Shown piece after piece: positions 1 to 14,791 of a stretch of DNA of 64,000 bases (the stretch's first letter is position 1; each line of letters starts with the position of its first letter). A model generated the notes under the pieces. It worked only from the letters and a program-made list of their open reading frames with translations. It was not told the origin of the DNA and searched no databases. The position numbers and the translations under genes were made by a program. The DNA comes from an uncultured delta proteobacterium (GTDB lineage: Bacteria > Desulfobacterota > Desulfobaccia > Desulfobaccales > 0-14-0-80-60-11), in NCBI GenBank assembly GCA_963812015.1, contig CAWETI010000002.1, forward strand, positions 1,056,001 through 1,120,000, written 5' to 3'.

Positions 1-268
1 CTACCAGGAGTGGCGGGGAGTCGCCTCCCAGATGGCCGCCGAAAACACACACCACCTGCGGTTGGACGATTTTAGCCGCCAGATAAAAAACCCGGGCCGC
101 GGCCTTGCCGGAAAAATACCAGCCGGCATGGGGCACGATGCCGCCATAGACTTTGGTCCCTGAGGGCAGGGGCGTGGTCCCGGCGATGAATTGGTCGATT
201 TCCGCCTTACAGGCGCTGGGGCTGGCGGGATACCACCCCACGGGCAACATCCGTTCCCGGGTTCGCAT
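1..268 (-). CDS. amrB: AmmeMemoRadiSam system protein B / MEMO1 family, N-terminal part (runs off window)
   Basis: Not in ORF track. Manual translation from ATG 268 (SD AAGGAGG): MRTRERMLPVGWYPASPSACKAEIDQF...GGIVPHAGWYFSG, with the GxWYP and PHAGxxFSG motifs. Confidence 0.8.
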   Translation of the reverse strand, partial: MRTRERMLPVGWYPASPSACKAEIDQFIAGTTPLPSGTKVYGGIVPHAGWYFSGKAAARVFYLAAKIVQPQVVCVFGGHLGGDSPPLLV

Positions 269-534: not shown

Positions 535-1104
535 TTAATGGCTGTCGGCCAATTGGCGGATTCTTTCCACCAGGCCCAATTGGACGAACAGGGTGGACAC
601 CGCCCCGGGGACCAGGTGCTCCCAGGGTTGGTCTTGGACAATTTTTTGGCGAATCAGGCTGGAGGTGAGCCCCTTTTCGGCCTTGGTCTTGCGCCACAGG
701 ACCTCGACGTGCAGCCCCAATGATTCAAACAGCTTCAACTTCCTCTCCCCCCAGGCGTCATAGATGGTGAGATAAAAGACGGCCTTAAGGGGCACGTAAT
801 ACTGATAGAGTTCGGGAAAATTGATGGGGAGCGGCACCAGGGAAAATTCCCGGTGGTGGATACCTTGTTCCAACAGGGTCTCTTTGAGGATGACATAACG
901 TTCGTAATAGGTCAGGGGGTTGTCGGCTGGACTGCTGCGATGCGGGTCGGCCTGGTCGTATTTGGTCAGGGTGGGGTCGGGGTTGGTGATGGCCACGATG
1001 AGGTGGCGGCAGCGGGCTTTGGCCGCCAGGATATACTTCACATGGTCATGGTGGAGCACCTGGAACCGGCCGTGGGCCACCCCGGTTTCAGCTAACGTGG
1101 TCAT
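535..1104 (-). CDS. Nucleotidyltransferase, NMN/NaMN adenylyltransferase-like (HxGH superfamily)
   Basis: HGRFQVLHHDH motif, NPLTYYER, TSSLIR. Confidence 0.8.
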   Translation of the reverse strand: MTTLAETGVAHGRFQVLHHDHVKYILAAKARCRHLIVAITNPDPTLTKYDQADPHRSSPADNPLTYYERYVILKETLLEQGIHHREFSLVPLPINFPELYQYYVPLKAVFYLTIYDAWGERKLKLFESLGLHVEVLWRKTKAEKGLTSSLIRQKIVQDQPWEHLVPGAVSTLFVQLGLVERIRQLADSH

Positions 1105-1152
1105 GTCTCGCAAGGTCTCCGATTGTCGGCGGACGGCGCCCCATCTTCCGCC

Positions 1153-2478
1153 TTACTTGATGGCCAGGGGCTTATACCGGCCGGGGAAGAAGGGTTGATC
1201 CCAGGGAGAGTCCATGAGGCCGTAAAGCTTGCCCCGATCGAGAAAATTAAGCACCAGATACATGAGCTCCCGGCCTCTGACGGTGCCCAGGGCCCCGGCG
1301 GCGCAACTGACTTCGTCAAAGCGTTTCACGGCATCCCGGCGGGTATAGCGGCCGATCATGCACAGGGGCACGCTCTCGCCGGAATGGATCATCCGGCCGG
1401 CGCTGTTGGTGGAATGGTCCGCGGTGATTACCAGGAGCACGTCGGGGGAGGACACGATGTCCTCCAGGGCGAAGGCAAAGGCCTTATCCAGGTCCTCCAA
1501 CACGGCGCGTTTGATCCGGGGGTTTTTGGTGTGGGCCGCTTCATCGGGGGCCTTGGTATGGACGTAGATGAAATCGTAATCGGTGGCCGACCTGGCCAGC
1601 TCCAAGCGTTGCCGCAGGTCATCACCGGGCCGGTCGGTGTCCTGCACCGGGTGCCGGGTCATGCCCAGGTACTGGCTCAAGCCTTTATAGAGCGCCCCGG
1701 AAGCGATGGCCAGGGAGCGCAGACCCCACTTTTCCGGAAAGGGCTGCACCGGTTTCCATCGACCGGCGCGCTGGGTGCCGACGGCATTGATGGGGGGGAG
1801 TCCAGCCTTACGTCTCCGGTCGTTAATCGGGTGCCGACTGAGGCGATGGTAACACCAGGTCAAATAGAGGTTCAGTGCCGCCGCGGTCTTGCGGGCCCGG
1901 AGATCATTGTGGTGGGTCGCACAAGGCAAGACCTCCATGAGCGGACGCCCTTCATAAATCGGGTTGGAGTCAGTGATTTCCGGGGCCACCTCCTCCCCCT
2001 TCACCAGCACGATCCCCCCAATCCCCTTGGTAGGAATAAACTCCACCTCCAGCCCTTCGTGCCGGAAATGCCTGATCTCTTCTTGCAACGTCAAACAGGT
2101 CTCAGGGTCGAGCTTGGGGTCTTCCACCTCCAGAACTAAATGGCCCTGGTCCTCCCGGACCGCAAAAATTCTGGATAGAAGGGCGATTTCCCCCGGACCG
2201 ACCGGGATATTTTCCCCCAAAGCTTCGATATAGCCGCGGCCCGGAAAATCCTTGAGGTCGTAGCCGAACAGGAGAAAGTGCGCGATTTCGCTGGGCAGGG
2301 TGATGCCCTGAAGCCAGGGGTGTAAGAGGCCGTTCATCCCCAGGGCGGCCAGGCGATCCAGGTTGGGAGTGCGGGCCTGCTGCAACGGCGTCTTGCCGCC
2401 AAAGGCCGCGATGCCTCGGTCACCTAACCCGTCAAGTATCACGAAGATACATCTCATGGCTGAAGTTGCTTCATTCAT
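1153..2478 (-). CDS. Cofactor-independent phosphoglycerate mutase-like (ApgM/alkaline phosphatase superfamily)
   Basis: LDGLGD, TPNLD, PSEIAH, PGRGYIEALG, PDEAAH, TADHST, HSGESVP. Confidence 0.85.
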   Translation of the reverse strand: MNEATSAMRCIFVILDGLGDRGIAAFGGKTPLQQARTPNLDRLAALGMNGLLHPWLQGITLPSEIAHFLLFGYDLKDFPGRGYIEALGENIPVGPGEIALLSRIFAVREDQGHLVLEVEDPKLDPETCLTLQEEIRHFRHEGLEVEFIPTKGIGGIVLVKGEEVAPEITDSNPIYEGRPLMEVLPCATHHNDLRARKTAAALNLYLTWCYHRLSRHPINDRRRKAGLPPINAVGTQRAGRWKPVQPFPEKWGLRSLAIASGALYKGLSQYLGMTRHPVQDTDRPGDDLRQRLELARSATDYDFIYVHTKAPDEAAHTKNPRIKRAVLEDLDKAFAFALEDIVSSPDVLLVITADHSTNSAGRMIHSGESVPLCMIGRYTRRDAVKRFDEVSCAAGALGTVRGRELMYLVLNFLDRGKLYGLMDSPWDQPFFPGRYKPLAIK

Positions 2479-2493
2479 AAAGGCACGGTAACT

Positions 2494-3543
2494 TTAAGGC
2501 TCCAACCTGATCCTTCCCGGGGCTTGGCCGGTCACCTCGCCGATGAGCGCCGCCTTGATACCGTTGAGCTTTAGGCAATCCATAAGGACCGCCGCCCGGT
2601 CCGCGGCTACGGCGAGGAGCAGTCCGCCGTTGGTCTGGGCGTCACTGCAGAGGTCCACCAGCAGCGGATCGATCCCTGTTGCCACCGTAAGGCTCTTGGT
2701 GCAAAAGTTACGGTTGGCGAAACTGCCGGCCGGCACCAACCCCATGGCGGCATATTCCCGGGCCGCGGACAGGATCGGCACTTGATGGACTACAAAAGTA
2801 AGCTCGACGTTGCTGGCCACCGCCATTTCCAGGGCGTGACCCAGGAGGCCGAAGCCGGTGATGTCCGTGATGGCATGCACCGCCAAGTGGTCCAGGCACG
2901 CCTCGGGCAGCCGGTTCAAGGTCGTCATGACCTGGATGGCCTCGGCCTCCGCCTCCGGGGAGGCCAGGCGCCCTTTCACCGCGGTGGCGATAACACCGGT
3001 CCCCAGGGGCTTGGTAAGGATCAGCCGGTCGCCCACCCGGGCCCCGCCGTTGGTAAACACCCGTTCCGGGTGGACCACCCCGGTTACGGAGAGGCCGTAT
3101 TTCAACTCGGTATCGTCGACGCTATGGCCACCCAGGAGCAGGGCCCCGGCCTCATGAATCTTATCCAGGCCGCCGGCCAAAATAGCCTGGAGCACCTCTT
3201 TGGGCACGGTCTGGCAGGGGTAGCAGACAATGTTGAGGGCCGTTAAAGGCCGGCCGCCCATGGCGTATACGTCGCTTAAGGCATTGGCCGCGGCAATCTG
3301 GCCAAAAGTGTAGGGATCGTTGACCACGGGGGTAAAAAAGTCCACCGTCTGGATCAACGCGATCTCGGGTGTCAGGCGATACACGCCCGCGTCATCCGCC
3401 GTCTCCATGCCCACCAGCAGGTTGGGATGCGACTGGACGGGCAGAGTCTGCAAAATTTCCTCCAAGATCCCGGGAGGAATTTTAGCAGCTCAACCGGCGG
3501 CGCGGACCTGCTCCATCAAAGGCTGATAGCTTTTTTCGGTCAT
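2494..3543 (-). CDS. selD: Selenophosphate synthetase, selenoprotein form (Sec18), 349 aa
   Basis: ATG 3543 gives MTEKSYQPLMEQVRAAG-U(TGA 3490-3492)-AAKIPPG, in frame with DDAGVY, QTVDFFTP, AANALSDVYAMGG, GGHS, TDITGFGLLGH. Confidence 0.95.
3448..3489 (-). promoter_or_regulatory. Bacterial SECIS-like hairpin immediately 3' of the selD UGA
   Basis: CUGC-UAAAAUU-CCUCC-[CGGGAUCUU]-GGAGG-AAAUUUU-GCAG stem-loop with G-containing apical region. Confidence 0.75.
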
Positions 3544-3640
3544 GGTTCTCTCTCGGGTCATGGCTTCAAGAAGCCCGTTACTTTCTAGTATACCAGGTTT
3601 ACCCCTGCCTCCGCACCAGTCTGATGGCCCCTGGCCGGCC

Positions 3641-4444
3641 TCAGGACCGCGCCAGGGACCTCGATCCTTGGTTCAGAAATTCCCGCACCATTGCTAAGGT
3701 TTGCAGGAGCGCCGCTTCTTCCCGCAGTTCCAGCACCCACCAGGTGCACAGGGGCAATTTTTGCAAAAGCAAGAGACGCTCCCAGAGGTCGGACAGATTT
3801 TGGGGGGGCAGATGGCCGCTGGTACGCTCTTCATGATAGATGTGGGCGTTTAAAAACCGCTCGGGATGGGGCATGACAAAGTCAGCGACGCGAAACAGGC
3901 GACTCTCCACCGAGGGGCTGACTTGTGCATGGCCGATGTCGATGGTGCCCCAGACGTTGGTGGTCCGGAGGAGCTTTTCGAAGAGTTCCGGACGGCTGGT
4001 CCAACCCAGGGCCAGGTTTTCCAGGCAAAGGCGCACCCCCAGATGGTTGGCGAAGCTGACTAGGTCCGCCAACCCTTTCACGGTCCGCTCCCAGCAGAGG
4101 TCCAGGGTGTGGCTCAACCCCAAGCCGATATGGATGGTGAGGACGCGGCCCCCCACTTTGGAGACCAGACGGCAGACCCGGCGAAATACTTGCTTGGCCT
4201 TCTGGGCCTCGGCCGGATTTTCATTGCCCAGGTCCATGTTGTTGAACGGGCAATGATAGCGAACTTCCAAAGGATGCAGTAGGGAGATGGCCTTGACGTA
4301 AGACGATTCAGCCGCCGGACTGCCGGGCAAATCTTCCGGAAAAAAGCTCCAATCCACCCCTTCAAACCCGTGGGTCAGGGCGAATTCCTTCAAGGCTGCC
4401 ACGTCCGGCAGGAAATTACAGCAAGCAAGTCGCACGCTATTCAC
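3641..4444 (-). CDS. Sugar phosphate isomerase/epimerase family (xylose isomerase-like/AP endonuclease 2 TIM barrel)
   Basis: YHCPF, TIHIG, LCLENL, DIGHA, AHIYHEE, GHLPP, WVLE metal motifs. Confidence 0.8.
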   Translation of the reverse strand: MNSVRLACCNFLPDVAALKEFALTHGFEGVDWSFFPEDLPGSPAAESSYVKAISLLHPLEVRYHCPFNNMDLGNENPAEAQKAKQVFRRVCRLVSKVGGRVLTIHIGLGLSHTLDLCWERTVKGLADLVSFANHLGVRLCLENLALGWTSRPELFEKLLRTTNVWGTIDIGHAQVSPSVESRLFRVADFVMPHPERFLNAHIYHEERTSGHLPPQNLSDLWERLLLLQKLPLCTWWVLELREEAALLQTLAMVREFLNQGSRSLARS

Positions 4445-4638
4445 TTATGGTTTTTTCCCTGGAGCTTGGCGCACCGCAGTCTGCCGAGAAGCCGCGGGTT
4501 TTCGCAGCATGCCTCCGGCGTTCAGGTGAACCCTGGCAGGGGTGGGGCTGAGATAGGCGGGAAAGGTGGGAAGGTCTAAAACCGGATCTGGCGGGAAGGG
4601 AGCATGAGATCAGGCATACACTCTGCTGCTTCTCCCCG

Positions 4639-4753
4639 GGTGACCCCGCCTGCCCAAGCCGTTATGTCCTCGAGAGCCTTGCCAAGGCCTCTCGGAGCCA
4701 GGGTTCAGGATTTGGCGTAACTAGGAAACATCGGCCGAAGCACCCGGGTCACC
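4639..4753 (-). ncRNA. Unidentified structured RNA (riboswitch/leader or independent sRNA candidate)
   Basis: Perfect 8-bp closing stem GGUGACCC/GGGUCACC with nested stems, located about 16 nt after the predicted TSS. Confidence 0.55.
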
Positions 4754-4775
4754 TCCCTAAATAAGATTATTCGCA

Positions 4776-4805
4776 ATTATAAGGCCATTTGGCCGAAAAA
4801 ATCAA
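4776..4805 (-). promoter_or_regulatory. sigma70-type promoter
   Basis: TTGATT-N18-TATAAT on the minus strand. Confidence 0.6.
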
Positions 4806-4880
4806 CGACCATTTGCCGTCGGCCCCAAAGCCGGTGGTGAGAGGCTCTTGGACCGGTCAAGTTGAAGCCGGCGACGACTT

Positions 4881-5351
4881 TTAGGACCGGAGGGTCGCGG
4901 TCAGACCGGCCGGAACCAGCAGCAGATCCAGGGCCTCGAGGATGCCCGGAACCACCACGTCCGCGGCCATCAGCGCCTCCACCGCCAGTCCTTCCGCCTG
5001 GAGCAGGGCGATCCCCAGGATCGCCTCCTGAAGCATGAGCCGGTCATTTCTGCCGTTGCCCACGGCCACCGTGTGGTCGCGCCCCAGCCGCCGCACGTAT
5101 TCGGCTTTGGCGTGGGCCTGATCTCCGGAAGGAATGACGACAAGATCAGCGGGCAGGTGGGCCACTTGGTCCCTGACCGTCCCGAAAGTGTCGGCCGTCA
5201 AGATGTGGATCGTCAGGCGGGGAGCCAGAACCTCCAGCTTCGGATGGACGCCCTGGATGAGCCGGCCCTGACAGGCAAGGGTGCCGTTATAGTCCAGAAC
5301 CAGGTGCGCCAGCCGCAAGTCCTTGAAACCAGGTATCGTTATGCCGATCAT
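4881..5351 (-). CDS. HAD-superfamily hydrolase (soluble P-type ATPase-like)
   Basis: DYNGTLA, TADTFGT, VGNGRND motifs. Confidence 0.85.
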   Translation of the reverse strand: MIGITIPGFKDLRLAHLVLDYNGTLACQGRLIQGVHPKLEVLAPRLTIHILTADTFGTVRDQVAHLPADLVVIPSGDQAHAKAEYVRRLGRDHTVAVGNGRNDRLMLQEAILGIALLQAEGLAVEALMAADVVVPGILEALDLLLVPAGLTATLRS

Positions 5352-9912: not shown

Positions 9913-10752
<840 letters not shown>

Positions 10753-10770
10753 GCGGAAGGGGAGGGAACC

Positions 10771-10890
10771 ATGAATCTTATCAGCGCCGTGCTGGTAAAT
10801 CTTTGGGTGGCAGGTTGGGCGGTGGCCGCCCTACGAGCATCTCTCAAGGCCAAGGCCGCAACCATTGACGGCCCGATCTCAAGCAAGTGA
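10771..10890 (+). CDS. Small hydrophobic ORF (39 aa) between nifH and nifI1
   Basis: SD GGAGGG then MNLISAVLVNLWVAGWAVAALRASLKAKAATIDGPISSK*. Fills the spacer. Below track cutoff. Confidence 0.45.
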   Translation: MNLISAVLVNLWVAGWAVAALRASLKAKAATIDGPISSK

Positions 10891-10919
10891 CCAGGAAAAA
10901 CGTAACAGGAGGAAGAGTC

Positions 10920-11276
10920 ATGATCATGATCAGATCGGTGGTGAGGCCGGAAAAAGTGGACGCGGTCCTGGCCGCCTTAATGGAAGCGGGATTCCCTGCG
11001 GTCACCAAAATGAGCGTGGTGGGCCGGGGCAAGCAGCGGGGCATCAAGATCGGGGAGATCACCTATGACGAAATCCCCAAGGAACTGCTGCTCACCGTGG
11101 TGAAGGATGCGGACAAGGATTTCGTCGTCAAGACCGTCCTCAAGGCGGCGCGCACCGGCGACAAGGGGGCTTTCGGCGACGGCAAGATCTTTGTCTCCCA
11201 GGTGGAGGAAGTCTACACCATCAGCTCCGGCATCAAGGAAAGCGGGGCCGGGGAGTTGGAAGAGGTAACGGTATGA
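10920..11276 (+). CDS. nifI1: PII-family nitrogenase regulator NifI1
   Basis: RPEK, GRGKQRG, GDGKIFV, located between nifH and nifD. Confidence 0.9.
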   Translation: MIMIRSVVRPEKVDAVLAALMEAGFPAVTKMSVVGRGKQRGIKIGEITYDEIPKELLLTVVKDADKDFVVKTVLKAARTGDKGAFGDGKIFVSQVEEVYTISSGIKESGAGELEEVTV

Positions 11277-11653
11277 AAGAGATTATGGCCATCGTGCGCA
11301 TCAATATGATGAATAAGACCAAGAAGGCCCTGGCGGAGGCGGGCATCTCCTCCATCACCGCCCGGGACGCCTTGGGGAGGGGCAAGGGCCTGGTGGACCT
11401 GACCCTGCTGGAAGGCGCGGAAAAAGGCTATGAGGAGGCCATCGTCCAGTTGGGCCAGAGCCAGCGTCTCATCCCCAAACGCATCTTCTTTGTCGTGGTC
11501 CCGGACCGGTTGGTCAAAAAAACCGTGCAGACCATCATTGCGGTGAACCGCACCGGCAAATCGGGCGACGGCAAGATCTTCGTCATGCCCGTGATGGACT
11601 CGGTTCGGGTGCGGACCGCCGAGTCCGGCGACCAGGTCTTGGACGAAGCCTGA
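11273..11653 (+). CDS. nifI2: PII-family nitrogenase regulator NifI2
   Basis: MKEIMAIVRINMMNKTK, GRGKG, GDGKIFV. Confidence 0.9.
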   Translation: MKEIMAIVRINMMNKTKKALAEAGISSITARDALGRGKGLVDLTLLEGAEKGYEEAIVQLGQSQRLIPKRIFFVVVPDRLVKKTVQTIIAVNRTGKSGDGKIFVMPVMDSVRVRTAESGDQVLDEA

Positions 11654-11687
11654 GCCAGACCTGCAGCAATCATACGGAGAAAGACCC

Positions 11688-13343
11688 ATGCCTGTAATAC
11701 CAGACAAAGACTTGAGTTCGACAATCTTGGAACTCGATGCGGCCGAGGTGAAGCGGGAGTTGATCAGCAAGTATCCCACCAAAGTCGCGAGGAAGCGCGC
11801 CAAGCAGATCGTCGTGAACGAGGTGGGCCCGGACAGTTGCGTGCCGGAAATTCAGTCCAACGTCAGGACCATCCCCGGCATCATCTCCCAGCGGGGCTGC
11901 ACCTACGCCGGCTGCAAAGGGGTAGTGTTGGGCCCCACCCGGGATATCGTCAACATCACCCACGGCCCCATCGGCTGCGGCTTCTATTCCTGGCTCACCC
12001 GCCGGAACCAGACCCGGCCCAAGAGCCCGGAAGACCATAATTTCATGACGTATTGTTTTTCCACGGACATGCAGGATGAGCAGATCATCTTCGGCGGCGA
12101 GAAGAAACTGCGGCAGGCGGTGCAAGAGGCCTATGATCTCTTCAAGCCCAAGGCCATCAGTATCTTCTCCACCTGCCCGGTGGGCCTCATCGGCGACGAC
12201 GTTCACGCAGTGGCCCGGGAGATGAAGGAAAAGCTGGGCGTCAACGTCTTTGCCTTTAGTTGCGAGGGCTACAAAGGGGTGAGTCAGTCCGCCGGCCACC
12301 ATATCGCCAACAACGGCATCTTCACCCACGTGGTGGGCCTGGACGACACCGTCAAGGAAGGCAAGTTCAAGATCAACATGCTGGGGGAATATAACATCGG
12401 CGGCGACGCCTTCGAAATCGAGCGCCTCTTTGAGGACATCGGCGTCACCCTGGTGGCCAGCTTCAGCGGCAACTCCAGCTACGATTATTTTGCCAACTCC
12501 CACACCGCGGACCTCAACCTCATCATGTGCCACCGCTCCATCAACTACGTGGCCGAGATGATGGAGACGAAATTTGGCATCCCCTGGATCAAGGTCAACT
12601 TCATCGGGGCCGAGGCCACGGCCAAGTCCTTGAGGAAGATCGCCGATTATTTCGACGACCCTGAATTGACCGAACGGGTGGAAGCGGTTATCGCCCGGGA
12701 AATGCCCGCCGTGGAGCAGGTGCGGAACGCAGTCAAGCCCAGGTGCGACGGCAAAACGGCCATGCTGTTCGTGGGCGGCTCCCGGGCCCACCATTACCAG
12801 GAACTCTTCCGGGAGATCGGCATGGAGACCATCGCCGCGGGCTACGAGTTCGCCCACCGGGACGACTACGAAGGCCGGCGGGTTTTGCCCAACCTCAAGG
12901 TTGACGCGGACAGCCGCAACATTGAAGAGCTACACATCGAACCGGACCCCAACCGCTACCAGCCCCGGTTGAGCGAGGCGGATAAGGCCCGGCTGGAGCA
13001 GGCCGGCATCAAGCTCAGCGAATACGAGGGCATGATGGCGGAGATGGAGAGCGGCGCCCTGGTCATCGACGATATCAGCCAGTTCGAAACCGAGCGGCTC
13101 ATAGAAATCTACCGGCCCGACATCATCTGCGCCGGCATCAAGGAAAAGTACGCCATTCAGAAGAGCGGCGTCCCCATGAAGCAACTGCACAGCTATGACT
13201 CCGGCGGACCGTATGCCGGCTTTAAGGGGGCCGTCAACTTCTACCGGGAGATCGACCGAATGGTCAACAGCAAGGTCTGGAAGTATCTGAAGGCGCCCTG
13301 GCAGGAGAATCCCGAACTGGCCGCCAAATATGCGTGGGAATGA
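11688..13343 (+). CDS. nifD: Nitrogenase MoFe protein alpha chain (group II-type with insertion)
   Basis: P-cluster Cys motifs RGCTYAGC, GPIGC, STCP. FeMoco ligands MCHRS and KQLHSYD. Confidence 0.97.
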   Translation: MPVIPDKDLSSTILELDAAEVKRELISKYPTKVARKRAKQIVVNEVGPDSCVPEIQSNVRTIPGIISQRGCTYAGCKGVVLGPTRDIVNITHGPIGCGFYSWLTRRNQTRPKSPEDHNFMTYCFSTDMQDEQIIFGGEKKLRQAVQEAYDLFKPKAISIFSTCPVGLIGDDVHAVAREMKEKLGVNVFAFSCEGYKGVSQSAGHHIANNGIFTHVVGLDDTVKEGKFKINMLGEYNIGGDAFEIERLFEDIGVTLVASFSGNSSYDYFANSHTADLNLIMCHRSINYVAEMMETKFGIPWIKVNFIGAEATAKSLRKIADYFDDPELTERVEAVIAREMPAVEQVRNAVKPRCDGKTAMLFVGGSRAHHYQELFREIGMETIAAGYEFAHRDDYEGRRVLPNLKVDADSRNIEELHIEPDPNRYQPRLSEADKARLEQAGIKLSEYEGMMAEMESGALVIDDISQFETERLIEIYRPDIICAGIKEKYAIQKSGVPMKQLHSYDSGGPYAGFKGAVNFYREIDRMVNSKVWKYLKAPWQENPELAAKYAWE

Positions 13344-13414
13344 ACCGGGGAGAGCCCGCCGGTCTGAGAGCCGCCGCGGCGCACCGCCCCGGATGAGGAA
13401 CCGAGGATAACGCC

Positions 13415-14791
13415 ATGTTATTAAGACATACTCCCTGTGAAATTACGGAACGCACGGCCTTGACCATTAATCCGGCCAAGACCTGCCAGCCCATCGGGGC
13501 GATGTACGCCGCCCTGGGCATCCACAGTTGCCTGCCCCACAGCCACGGCTCCCAGGGGTGCTACGCCTATCACCGCAGCGCCTTAACCCGCCACTACAAA
13601 GAGCCGGTGATGGCGGGGACGAGTGCCTTCACCGAAGGCGCCTCCGTGTTCGGGGGGCAGGCCAACCTGCTCCAGGCCATCAACAACATCTTTACCATAT
13701 ATGAGCCCGAGGTCATTGCGGTTCATACCACCTGCCTGTCGGAGACCATCGGGGACGACATCCCCCAGATCATCGCCAAGGCCAGGGATGAAGGCAAGAT
13801 TCCTCCGGGCAAATACGTCATCCATGCCAATACCCCCAGTTACGTGGGGTCCCATGTCACCGGCTTTGCCAACATGGTGAAAGGCATGGTGGATTATTTC
13901 GCCACGGCCAACGGCCACAAGGAGAACCGGATCAACCTGATTCCCGGCTACGTGGAGCCCTCCGACATGGAAGAGATCAAGCGCATTGCCGGTGAGCTGA
14001 GGGTGCCCATCATCATGTTCCCCGACACCTCCAATGTGCTCAACGGTCCCCAGACGGGAAAATATCACATGTATCCCGCCGGGGGCACCTCGGTGGCCGA
14101 TTTGATCCTCGCCGGGAGCAGCATGGGCACGGTGGCCCTGGGGCCCCTGGCCTCCGGGCCGGCCGCCCGGGCTTTGGACACCAAGTGCAAGGTGCCCTGC
14201 GAAATCCTGAACCTGCCCATCGGCCTTATGGCCACCGACAATTTTATTGACACTTTAAGAAGGATCGCTGGGGTGACCGTGCCCGACTCCCTCAATATTG
14301 ATCGGGGCCGGCTCCTGGACGTCATCACCGACATGCACCAGTATTTCTACGGCCGTAAGGTGGCCCTGGCGGGGGACCCGGATCAACTCATTTCCCTCAC
14401 CGAGTTTCTGGTGTCCATCGACATGTGGCCCATCCATATCGTCACCGGTACCCCGGGGAAAAAGTTCGAAGCCCGGATCAAGGAGATCACCAAAGAAGTG
14501 CCACATCCGGTTAACGTCAAGAGCGCCGGGGATATGTTTTTGCTGCATCAGTGGATCAAAAACGACCCGGTGAATCTGCTGATGGGTAACACCTATATGA
14601 AGTACATCGCCCGGGATGAAGACATCCCCCTGGTGCGCTTTGGCTTTCCCATCCTGGACCGCGTCGGCCACAGCTATTTCCCCACCGTGGGCTATCGGGG
14701 CGGATTGCGCCTGCTGGAAAAGATCCTGGACGCCCTGCTGGACCGCCAGGATCGGGATGCCTTGGAAGAGAGCTTCGAGTTGGTCATGTAG
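13415..14791 (+). CDS. nifK: Nitrogenase MoFe protein beta chain
   Basis: INPAKTCQPIGA, HGSQGC, TTCLSETIGDD, TPSYVGSH. Confidence 0.97.
   Translation: MLLRHTPCEITERTALTINPAKTCQPIGAMYAALGIHSCLPHSHGSQGCYAYHRSALTRHYKEPVMAGTSAFTEGASVFGGQANLLQAINNIFTIYEPEVIAVHTTCLSETIGDDIPQIIAKARDEGKIPPGKYVIHANTPSYVGSHVTGFANMVKGMVDYFATANGHKENRINLIPGYVEPSDMEEIKRIAGELRVPIIMFPDTSNVLNGPQTGKYHMYPAGGTSVADLILAGSSMGTVALGPLASGPAARALDTKCKVPCEILNLPIGLMATDNFIDTLRRIAGVTVPDSLNIDRGRLLDVITDMHQYFYGRKVALAGDPDQLISLTEFLVSIDMWPIHIVTGTPGKKFEARIKEITKEVPHPVNVKSAGDMFLLHQWIKNDPVNLLMGNTYMKYIARDEDIPLVRFGFPILDRVGHSYFPTVGYRGGLRLLEKILDALLDRQDRDALEESFELVM

Follow-up and report, generated by a model that had tools for sequence, protein, structure and literature searches.

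The RNA that opens the selD operon transcript, on the minus strand of the window (the whole 64,000-nucleotide stretch of DNA analysed here, from an uncultured Desulfobaccales bacterium), is on balance probably a selenocysteine-insertion-gated attenuator with a Rho-dependent output, a view of the whole mechanism built from sequence comparison and computed folds. Homologues of the element exist, they co-vary and they precede selenium-related genes, and the idea in the preliminary description that it is a new selenium-linked cis-regulator holds up. Its other suggestions, that the RNA is a riboswitch with a ligand or serves the operon as a partner or substrate, find no support: the conserved features are translation signals instead.

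In the proposed mechanism, when Sec-tRNA is scarce, ribosomes would pause or stop at the UGA codon of a short leader ORF, reload repeatedly on its strong Shine-Dalgarno (SD) sequence and hold the 5' strand of the leader. A G-rich strand would then be free to pair with a C-rich tract, Rho would be unable to load, and the operon would be ON. We speculate that twelve codons match about one ribosome length and would let two ribosomes cover the 5' strand. With ample Sec-tRNA and SelB, a ribosome would read through the UGA, unzip the helix between the G-rich strand and the tract, and stop at the tract's edge. Afterwards the G-rich strand would fold back onto the start region to form a rod, re-initiation would be blocked, and the bare tract would let Rho end the transcript 5' of the first gene. 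The regulated set, selenium-supply genes (yedE/yedF, selD) and selenium-free cysteine (Cys) back-ups, would be off when selenium is plentiful. It is very likely that the leader senses selenocysteine (Sec) supply at the UGA, and we hold with much the same assurance that the operon is ON in low selenium, a direction inferred because of the target genes. That the output is Rho termination seems likely.

The leader and its relatives

Minus-strand positions 4639-4753 had been described as a structured RNA that folds into a rod, and re-reading bore out the sequence, helices and distances given for it. The rod as drawn has a predicted free energy of -53.7 kcal/mol (z -3.0), with one of 200 shuffles equally stable; the TTGATT-18-TATAAT promoter at 4805-4776 is the sole promoter-like site in 4400-4950; and translation of the first CDS would begin 195 nt 3' of the rod, at 4444. 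The Rfam check agreed that no known RNA family is involved, with no match at gathering score across the window and, near the element (4400-4900), two chance microRNA matches alone (E 2.6 and 5.1). Resemblances to tRNA, SRP, TPP, ZTP and cyclic-di-GMP RNAs were considered and dropped on this result. A dispersed repeat or mobile element was also rejected, as copies lie behind promoters, run in sense with the next gene and occur as five distinct versions in this genome.

The fold is real, but the rod is half of a leader and not free-standing. The true element opens with the SD sequence at 4757 and reaches as far as the C-rich tract, at about 4525. It has two folds, one of them the rod, and an ORF that the preliminary description overlooked lies inside the rod. 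The features of the leader are as follows:

4796..4821, minus strand: terminator-like hairpin and U run after an upstream 156-aa ORF (consensus match only)
4776..4805, minus strand: sigma-70-type promoter TTGATT-18-TATAAT (1 found, 0.2 expected)
4749..4757, minus strand: Shine-Dalgarno sequence GGGAGGTGA of the leader ORF (read in the sequence)
4705..4743, minus strand: leader ORF, GUG at 4743-4741, 12 codons (MLRPMFPSYAKS), UGA at 4707-4705 (conserved frame)
4576..4704, minus strand: continuation of the leader ORF on read-through, 42 codons, TAG at 4578-4576 (frame reading)
4671..4694, minus strand: SECIS-type hairpin, GGC triloop at 4683-4681, 21 nt after the UGA (covariation and SECIS model)
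4626..4660, minus strand: G-rich switch strand, predicted partner of the ORF start (rod) or of the C-rich tract (folds and permutation test)
4525..4608, minus strand: C-rich, G-poor tract, candidate Rho utilisation site (from composition)

The closing helix drawn for the rod, GGUGACCC/GGGUCACC, is not the one that is kept; the conserved helix is CCRGGUG/CACCYGG over the start codon, with 93% of cells paired among 40 sequences. In a relative with about 93% identity, seen in contigs from four runs, two of the eight pairs of the drawn helix are broken and all eight of the conserved helix are kept, as we read its variants. The GCCA/UGGC hairpin and the C(UUCG)G loop are likewise absent from the conserved features of the alignment, in which a GGY hairpin is kept. 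A -10-like box is present in 51 of 68 copies and TTG at the -35 spacing in 46. In the window, the terminator-like hairpin overlaps the leader's -35 box; just 5' of this hairpin ends the 156-aa ORF (4881-5351, minus strand), which has no Pfam match and a HAD-like motif by eye.

The first homologues came from a DNA search of 61 related genomes. A profile from 19 of them found seven copies in the genome of the window, of which five are distinct, two pairs stemming from a 4,054-bp duplication. This duplication (G000:C2, ~292.3-296.4 kb and 806.0-810.1 kb; 99.98% identical) holds two back-to-back leaders; both copies have a short ModA-like gene (103 aa), and in one of them the hydrogenase-2 operon breaks off behind the small subunit. 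Scanning GTDB contigs by pattern (21 of 64 parts) gave at least 120 loci, 20 true and 100 chance matches, and the chance set served as a control. The 20 true loci are labelled Desulfobaccales, Desulfobacca, Syntrophobacterales, Deltaproteobacteria, Thermodesulfobacteriota or Proteobacteria. A covariance model had matches in 32 of the 36 further genomes from this family, in none of 14 from the sister family and in none of 10 others; in a phylum-wide draw it found one strong match among 146 genomes outside the family, and four weak ones that do not have the architecture. The outside copy (L208, G186:C183:699-835) lies 5' of a formate-dehydrogenase-like gene. With the 67 elements that remained after removal of identical copies it makes up the working set of 68, nearly all in one Desulfobaccales family and related to each other (15 sequence clusters). 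A sequence-independent scan, which asked for an SD, a short ORF, a UGA and a hairpin with a GG loop, detected no leader of this kind at 30 yedF loci (1.5 kb flanks), nor, in other families, in 28 yedE/yedF regions of 212 kb. Metatranscriptome contigs of relatives span the leader and begin 5' of the predicted start; as contigs, they carry no readable ends or levels.

Alternative folds and the C-rich tract

The putative switch consists of a G-rich strand 3' of the hairpin and a C-rich tract that lies about 100-170 nt after the UGA. In the window, 4561-4546 is predicted to pair with 4660-4644, and the best 50 nt of the tract contain 27 C and 6 G. The read-through frame stops beside the C-rich tract in the 67 copies. 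Pairing partners were compared with permuted ones across the 15 clusters, with one copy per cluster in each of five draws. The G-rich strand and the tract pair better with their own partners than with permuted ones (p 0.0004-0.0012), as do the ORF start and the G-rich strand (p 0.0008-0.037), and the control combination of ORF start and tract does not (p 0.29-0.55). This indicates that the G-rich arm co-varies with both the mini-ORF and the tract, giving two mutually exclusive predicted folds. RNAalifold, run on the 40-sequence alignment, returned the GGY hairpin and fragments only, which is expected because the folds compete; the named helices were afterwards counted one by one.

Support for the switch from folding is modest. 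The free 240-nt leader of the window folds by default into the tract-pairing form, and blocking 30 nt at the read-through stop of the window copy yields the rod. In the free leader, a mean of 0.44 of the tract Cs are unpaired across 40 copies. This share is 0.43 when a footprint is placed at the UGA alone, 0.38 when it spans the entire ORF and 0.55 when it lies at the read-through stop. Shuffled versions of the 240-nt leader are no less stable than the leader itself (z 0.03).

Classical leader-peptide attenuators of the trpL/hisL type end in an intrinsic terminator hairpin with a U run. No such terminator is found 40-300 nt after the UGA in any of the 68 copies, and none lies 3' of the element in the window. 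The C-minus-G skew of the tracts has a median of 18. For 1104 control upstream regions the median is 6; 3.2% of them reach 18, and 31% reach the skew of the weakest tract (9).

The layout resembles that of mgtL/mgtA and corL/corA in Salmonella and E. coli. In the available text on these systems, a leader ORF likewise lies in a three-way junction with two exclusive folds, the OFF fold sequesters the leader SD and bares a pyrimidine-rich rut site, and efficient leader translation represses, as we propose here (PMC12360218, PMC11552253). The likeness is one of layout: the signal described there is magnesium acting on proline or acidic codons, and here it would be a UGA with a SECIS-type hairpin. 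The features of this type of leader recur in ours, namely a leader ORF that its signals should make translatable, exclusive computed folds, a C-rich and G-poor tract, and a rho gene. For tnaC and speFL, too, the excerpts available describe ribosome position at the leader stop as governing Rho access, with a ligand and a specific peptide stalling a ribosome that covers rut (PMC12360218, PMC6386406). Unlike in those leaders, the peptide here appears variable, with a K/R-S/T end and a frequent R-P as the features that most copies or many of them share; some 100 nt separate the UGA from the tract, which would be hidden by a predicted helix.

The same sensor could in principle have a different output, in which UGA read-through acts on mRNA decay or on a long-range fold that covers the next ribosome binding site (RBS). 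The Rho step is itself inferred from sequence, and the Salmonella speF leader ORF, as far as the available part of its report goes, combines Rho, RBS unfolding and RNase G decay (PMC6386406). RBS occlusion nevertheless fits poorly with the variable distance at which the first called ORF follows the UGA (127 to 647 nt in 60 of the 61 copies with such an ORF), and the tract is of Rho type in its composition. We therefore regard a different output as unlikely, and Rho termination as the output to prefer.

The UGA codon, its hairpin and the leader ORF

The hairpin behind the UGA is the best conserved part of the element, and five of its eight pairs show changes on both sides. Bacterial SECIS elements have an apical loop of 3-9 nt on a stem of 4-16 pairs, a G in the first two loop positions, 16-37 nt from the in-frame UGA to the loop, and a free energy of -7.5 kcal/mol or lower (PMC13188914); 66 of the 68 copies fall within all four of these limits and two do not. 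In the window, the hairpin has a GGC triloop, a stem with five contiguous upper pairs and a free energy of -14.2 kcal/mol (family median -12.9). By a strict pattern, the loop is GGC in 30 and GGT in 33 of 67 copies. The spacing from UGA to loop is 21-24 nt across the family, and the offsets of 21, 22, 23 and 24 nt cover all three frames. Loop size, first-position G, spacing and stability are thus shared with bacterial SECIS elements, which normally lie inside a selenoprotein gene; this one lies in a leader with an unconserved product (PMC13188914).

The genome of the window encodes selB, tRNA-Sec and rho. The sole tRNA-Sec found (G000:C4:18351-18448) sits at the extreme end of an 18-kb contig. 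The co-occurrence of selB is uninformative, because the gene is present in 57 of the 61 relatives, including those without the leader. As a motif-only search for selenoproteins was too unspecific, Cys-to-UGA alignments were used instead, and these place Sec codons of this genome in MvhD, HdrA, HdrD-like, rhodanese and formate-dehydrogenase genes. Most of them (MvhD, HdrD-like, formate-dehydrogenase) are followed by a GG-first loop 18-23 nt downstream, and the MvhD gene at C2:7445 has a CCU-GGC-AGG top identical to that of the leader. A rhodanese-like gene (G000:C3 ~238779-239243, minus strand) contains two in-frame UGA codons four residues apart, both of which align to the Cys-x-x-x-x-Cys of a leader-controlled paralogue.

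The strong conservation of the hairpin would also suit a SelB operator or sink, in which SelB with Sec-tRNA represses from the hairpin, or the leader titrates SelB, and translation of the ORF is incidental. E. coli selAB sets a precedent: a SECIS-like hairpin in its 5' leader similarly reports Sec-tRNA via SelB (bioRxiv 10.64898/2026.03.03.709296). That hairpin, in the part of the preprint available, is 3 nt from the adjacent selA SD, which it blocks, and no leader ORF is described there. The hairpin here is about 230 nt from the first gene, so that the selAB-type adjacency to the SD of the regulated gene is absent; conservation extends to an ORF, a UGA and a distant switch; and the element serves many operons. 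An operator would moreover leave the SD, the 12 open codons, the in-frame UGA and the kept read-through length unexplained, and we consider it improbable in comparison with a gate that depends on translation.

The leader ORF carries the marks of a translated frame. An SD-like word is present in 66 of 67 copies by a loose pattern, and a stricter one finds it in 20/20 true copies and 5/100 chance matches. The start codon is GTG at the 12-codon position in 64 of 67 copies; one copy has ATG, one has TTG and one has a GTG ten codons before the stop, which gives an ORF of 12 codons in 66 copies and of 10 in the last. Internal stops are absent from all 67, and the two other frames over the mini-ORF are interrupted in 27 and 13 of the first 40 copies. 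All 68 ORFs end in UGA. The open frame, the hairpin and the read-through length are each found in 20/20 true copies and in 62, 7 and 22, respectively, of the 100 chance matches, a control that favours our reading in that the true set was picked by the profile. These signals suggest that the leader is conserved as a translation unit. A metabolite-binding riboswitch or an independent non-coding RNA, as first envisaged, could account for the stable rod, the three-way junction, the promoter of its own and the two alternative folds. The junction sequences vary, however, and it is the SD, the start codon, the UGA and the GG loop that are invariant; as an aptamer would not be expected to conserve a reading frame, this explanation is very improbable.

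Beyond the UGA, the frame stays open for 27-43 codons in 67 of 68 copies (30-33 codons in 43), a range chosen after the data were seen and in copies that are related (15 clusters); the exception is the copy from outside the family, with a 55-codon read-through. The other two frames fall within this range in 7 and 25 of 67 copies and spread from 0 to 105 codons. The read-through ends at TAA in 34, TAG in 21 and TGA in 12 of the 67 copies. In copies whose spacer before the hairpin is longer or shorter by one or two bases, reading continues in other frames and stops at similar distances (27, 37, 42; 31; 32 codons). Read-through therefore appears to be constrained in length and not in sequence. 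An SD, a start codon, a UGA and a SECIS would suffice for a selenoprotein gene, but a small selenopeptide acting as a protein is hardly credible, given that the read-through sequence is unconserved and the same DNA is read in different frames between copies. Most leader peptides end in Lys/Arg-Ser before the UGA and many have Arg-Pro at positions 3-4, and tnaC and speFL are described in the available text of PMC12360218 as stalling at their own stop codons; an arrest peptide or release-factor sensor for a non-selenium signal, with the hairpin as a stalling aid, is nonetheless just as implausible, because the last two residues are also RT, ST, KC, RA, SP or SS, the invariant UGA stands against a read-through stop that varies, and the targets are selenium genes.

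Genes behind the leader and what they imply

In the window, the leader is followed by these genes and signals:

3641..4444, minus strand: first gene, xylose-isomerase-like TIM barrel, 267 aa (PF01261, E 7e-18)
3587..3595, minus strand: possible internal extended -10 promoter (TG-G-TATACT) before selD (by eye)
2494..3543, minus strand: selD, with an in-frame UGA at 3492-3490 (A-G-U-A-A-K) and a hairpin behind it (TIGR00476, above cut-off)
1153..2478, minus strand: ApgM-type phosphoglycerate-mutase-like gene, 441 aa (TIGR00306, 323 bits, cut-off 320)
535..1113, minus strand: nucleotidyltransferase-like gene, 192 aa (PF01467; NMN adenylyltransferase models below cut-off)
2..268, minus strand: 5' part of a Memo-like gene that runs over the edge of the window (PF01875, below cut-off)

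The start of selD is the ATG at 3543; the standard ORF call shortens the protein to 323 aa. The mutase-like protein has a further match, below cut-off, to the model of PhpG, a phosphonoformyl transferase (E 5e-55). Elsewhere in the window, nifH, two PII-like genes, nifD and nifK were recognised by reading translations (9922-14791, plus strand); they are unrelated to the leader.

The element had been presented as lying at the start of the selD operon transcript. The selenium-gene context is right, but the leader is not specific to selD: the TIM-barrel gene is headed by seven of the 68 copies, and selD was seen in second place here and in genome G011 only. The TIM-barrel, mutase and nucleotidyltransferase trio follows the leader with or without selD (the window, L091, L190), in other genomes with no selD in between, and a -10-like motif precedes selD; selD may accordingly have a promoter of its own, and the leader's control of it may be partial. 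The same TG-G-TATA-x-T motif lies before selD in G011 (L207 ~1566-1575); the promoter scan did not flag the motif at 3587..3595. The trio may represent an undescribed module for selenium or selenophosphate handling.

First recognisable genes were assigned to classes by motif, with families confirmed on 59 and 13 chosen proteins. Across the 68 copies they are MauE-like (with rhodanese) in 16, Cys-MvhD in 9, the TIM barrel in 7, YedF/TusA in 6, double-cubane reductase and Cys-HdrA in 5 each, and YedE in 4. A Cys HdrD-like, a ModA-like, a hydrogenase-2, a VhuG-like and a formate-dehydrogenase-like gene are single cases; five copies precede other genes, and in six the sequence is too short. In the genome of the window, three kinds of gene that follow other copies of the leader, Cys MvhD, rhodanese and HdrD-like, have UGA paralogues elsewhere in the genome. 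A fourth copy precedes a selenium-free hydrogenase-2 operon, and the same genome has two hydrogenase large subunits with DP-UGA-xxC, in both of which the UGA is at the metal-binding position. No UGA paralogue was found in this genome for the ModA-like and double-cubane targets. Other leaders head a VTT/DedA-domain gene that has a SaoL-like lyase close by (L199), and transglutaminase-like and alginate-export-type outer-membrane genes (L178, L185). The VTT/DedA, transglutaminase-like and alginate-export-type genes are candidates for new selenium-regulated genes.

Repression of Cys back-ups in adequate selenium, as we propose here, has also been described in Methanococcus maripaludis, where the available text names the LysR-type protein HrsM as the repressor (PMC11097638). 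Here the sensor would instead be an mRNA with its ribosome. The same text calls the selenium-sensing step unknown even in this best-studied archaeon (PMC11097638).

Among titles and abstracts of the open literature, with subscription journals mostly outside the search, we found no bacterial leader attenuator that uses a Sec codon, and the table of leader-ORF Rho attenuators in a 2025 review, as available to us, lists no selenium case (PMC12360218). The gate, a UGA with a SECIS-type hairpin, would be new, and the layout would be the one known from mgtL and corL. The reading that we favour with moderate confidence is a recoding-based switch, in which a dummy selenoprotein gene gauges Sec-tRNA and SelB and runs a multi-operon selenium-starvation regulon through a fold that controls Rho. 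The leader offers a concrete candidate mechanism for selenium sensing that three reporter point mutations could test, and it could possibly serve as an in vivo read-out for Sec insertion. It would also mark genes as selenium-regulated, including the unstudied trio of TIM-barrel, mutase-like and nucleotidyltransferase genes. If this is true, relatives of sulfate reducers possess a natural switch in which programmed stop-codon recoding is the sensor.
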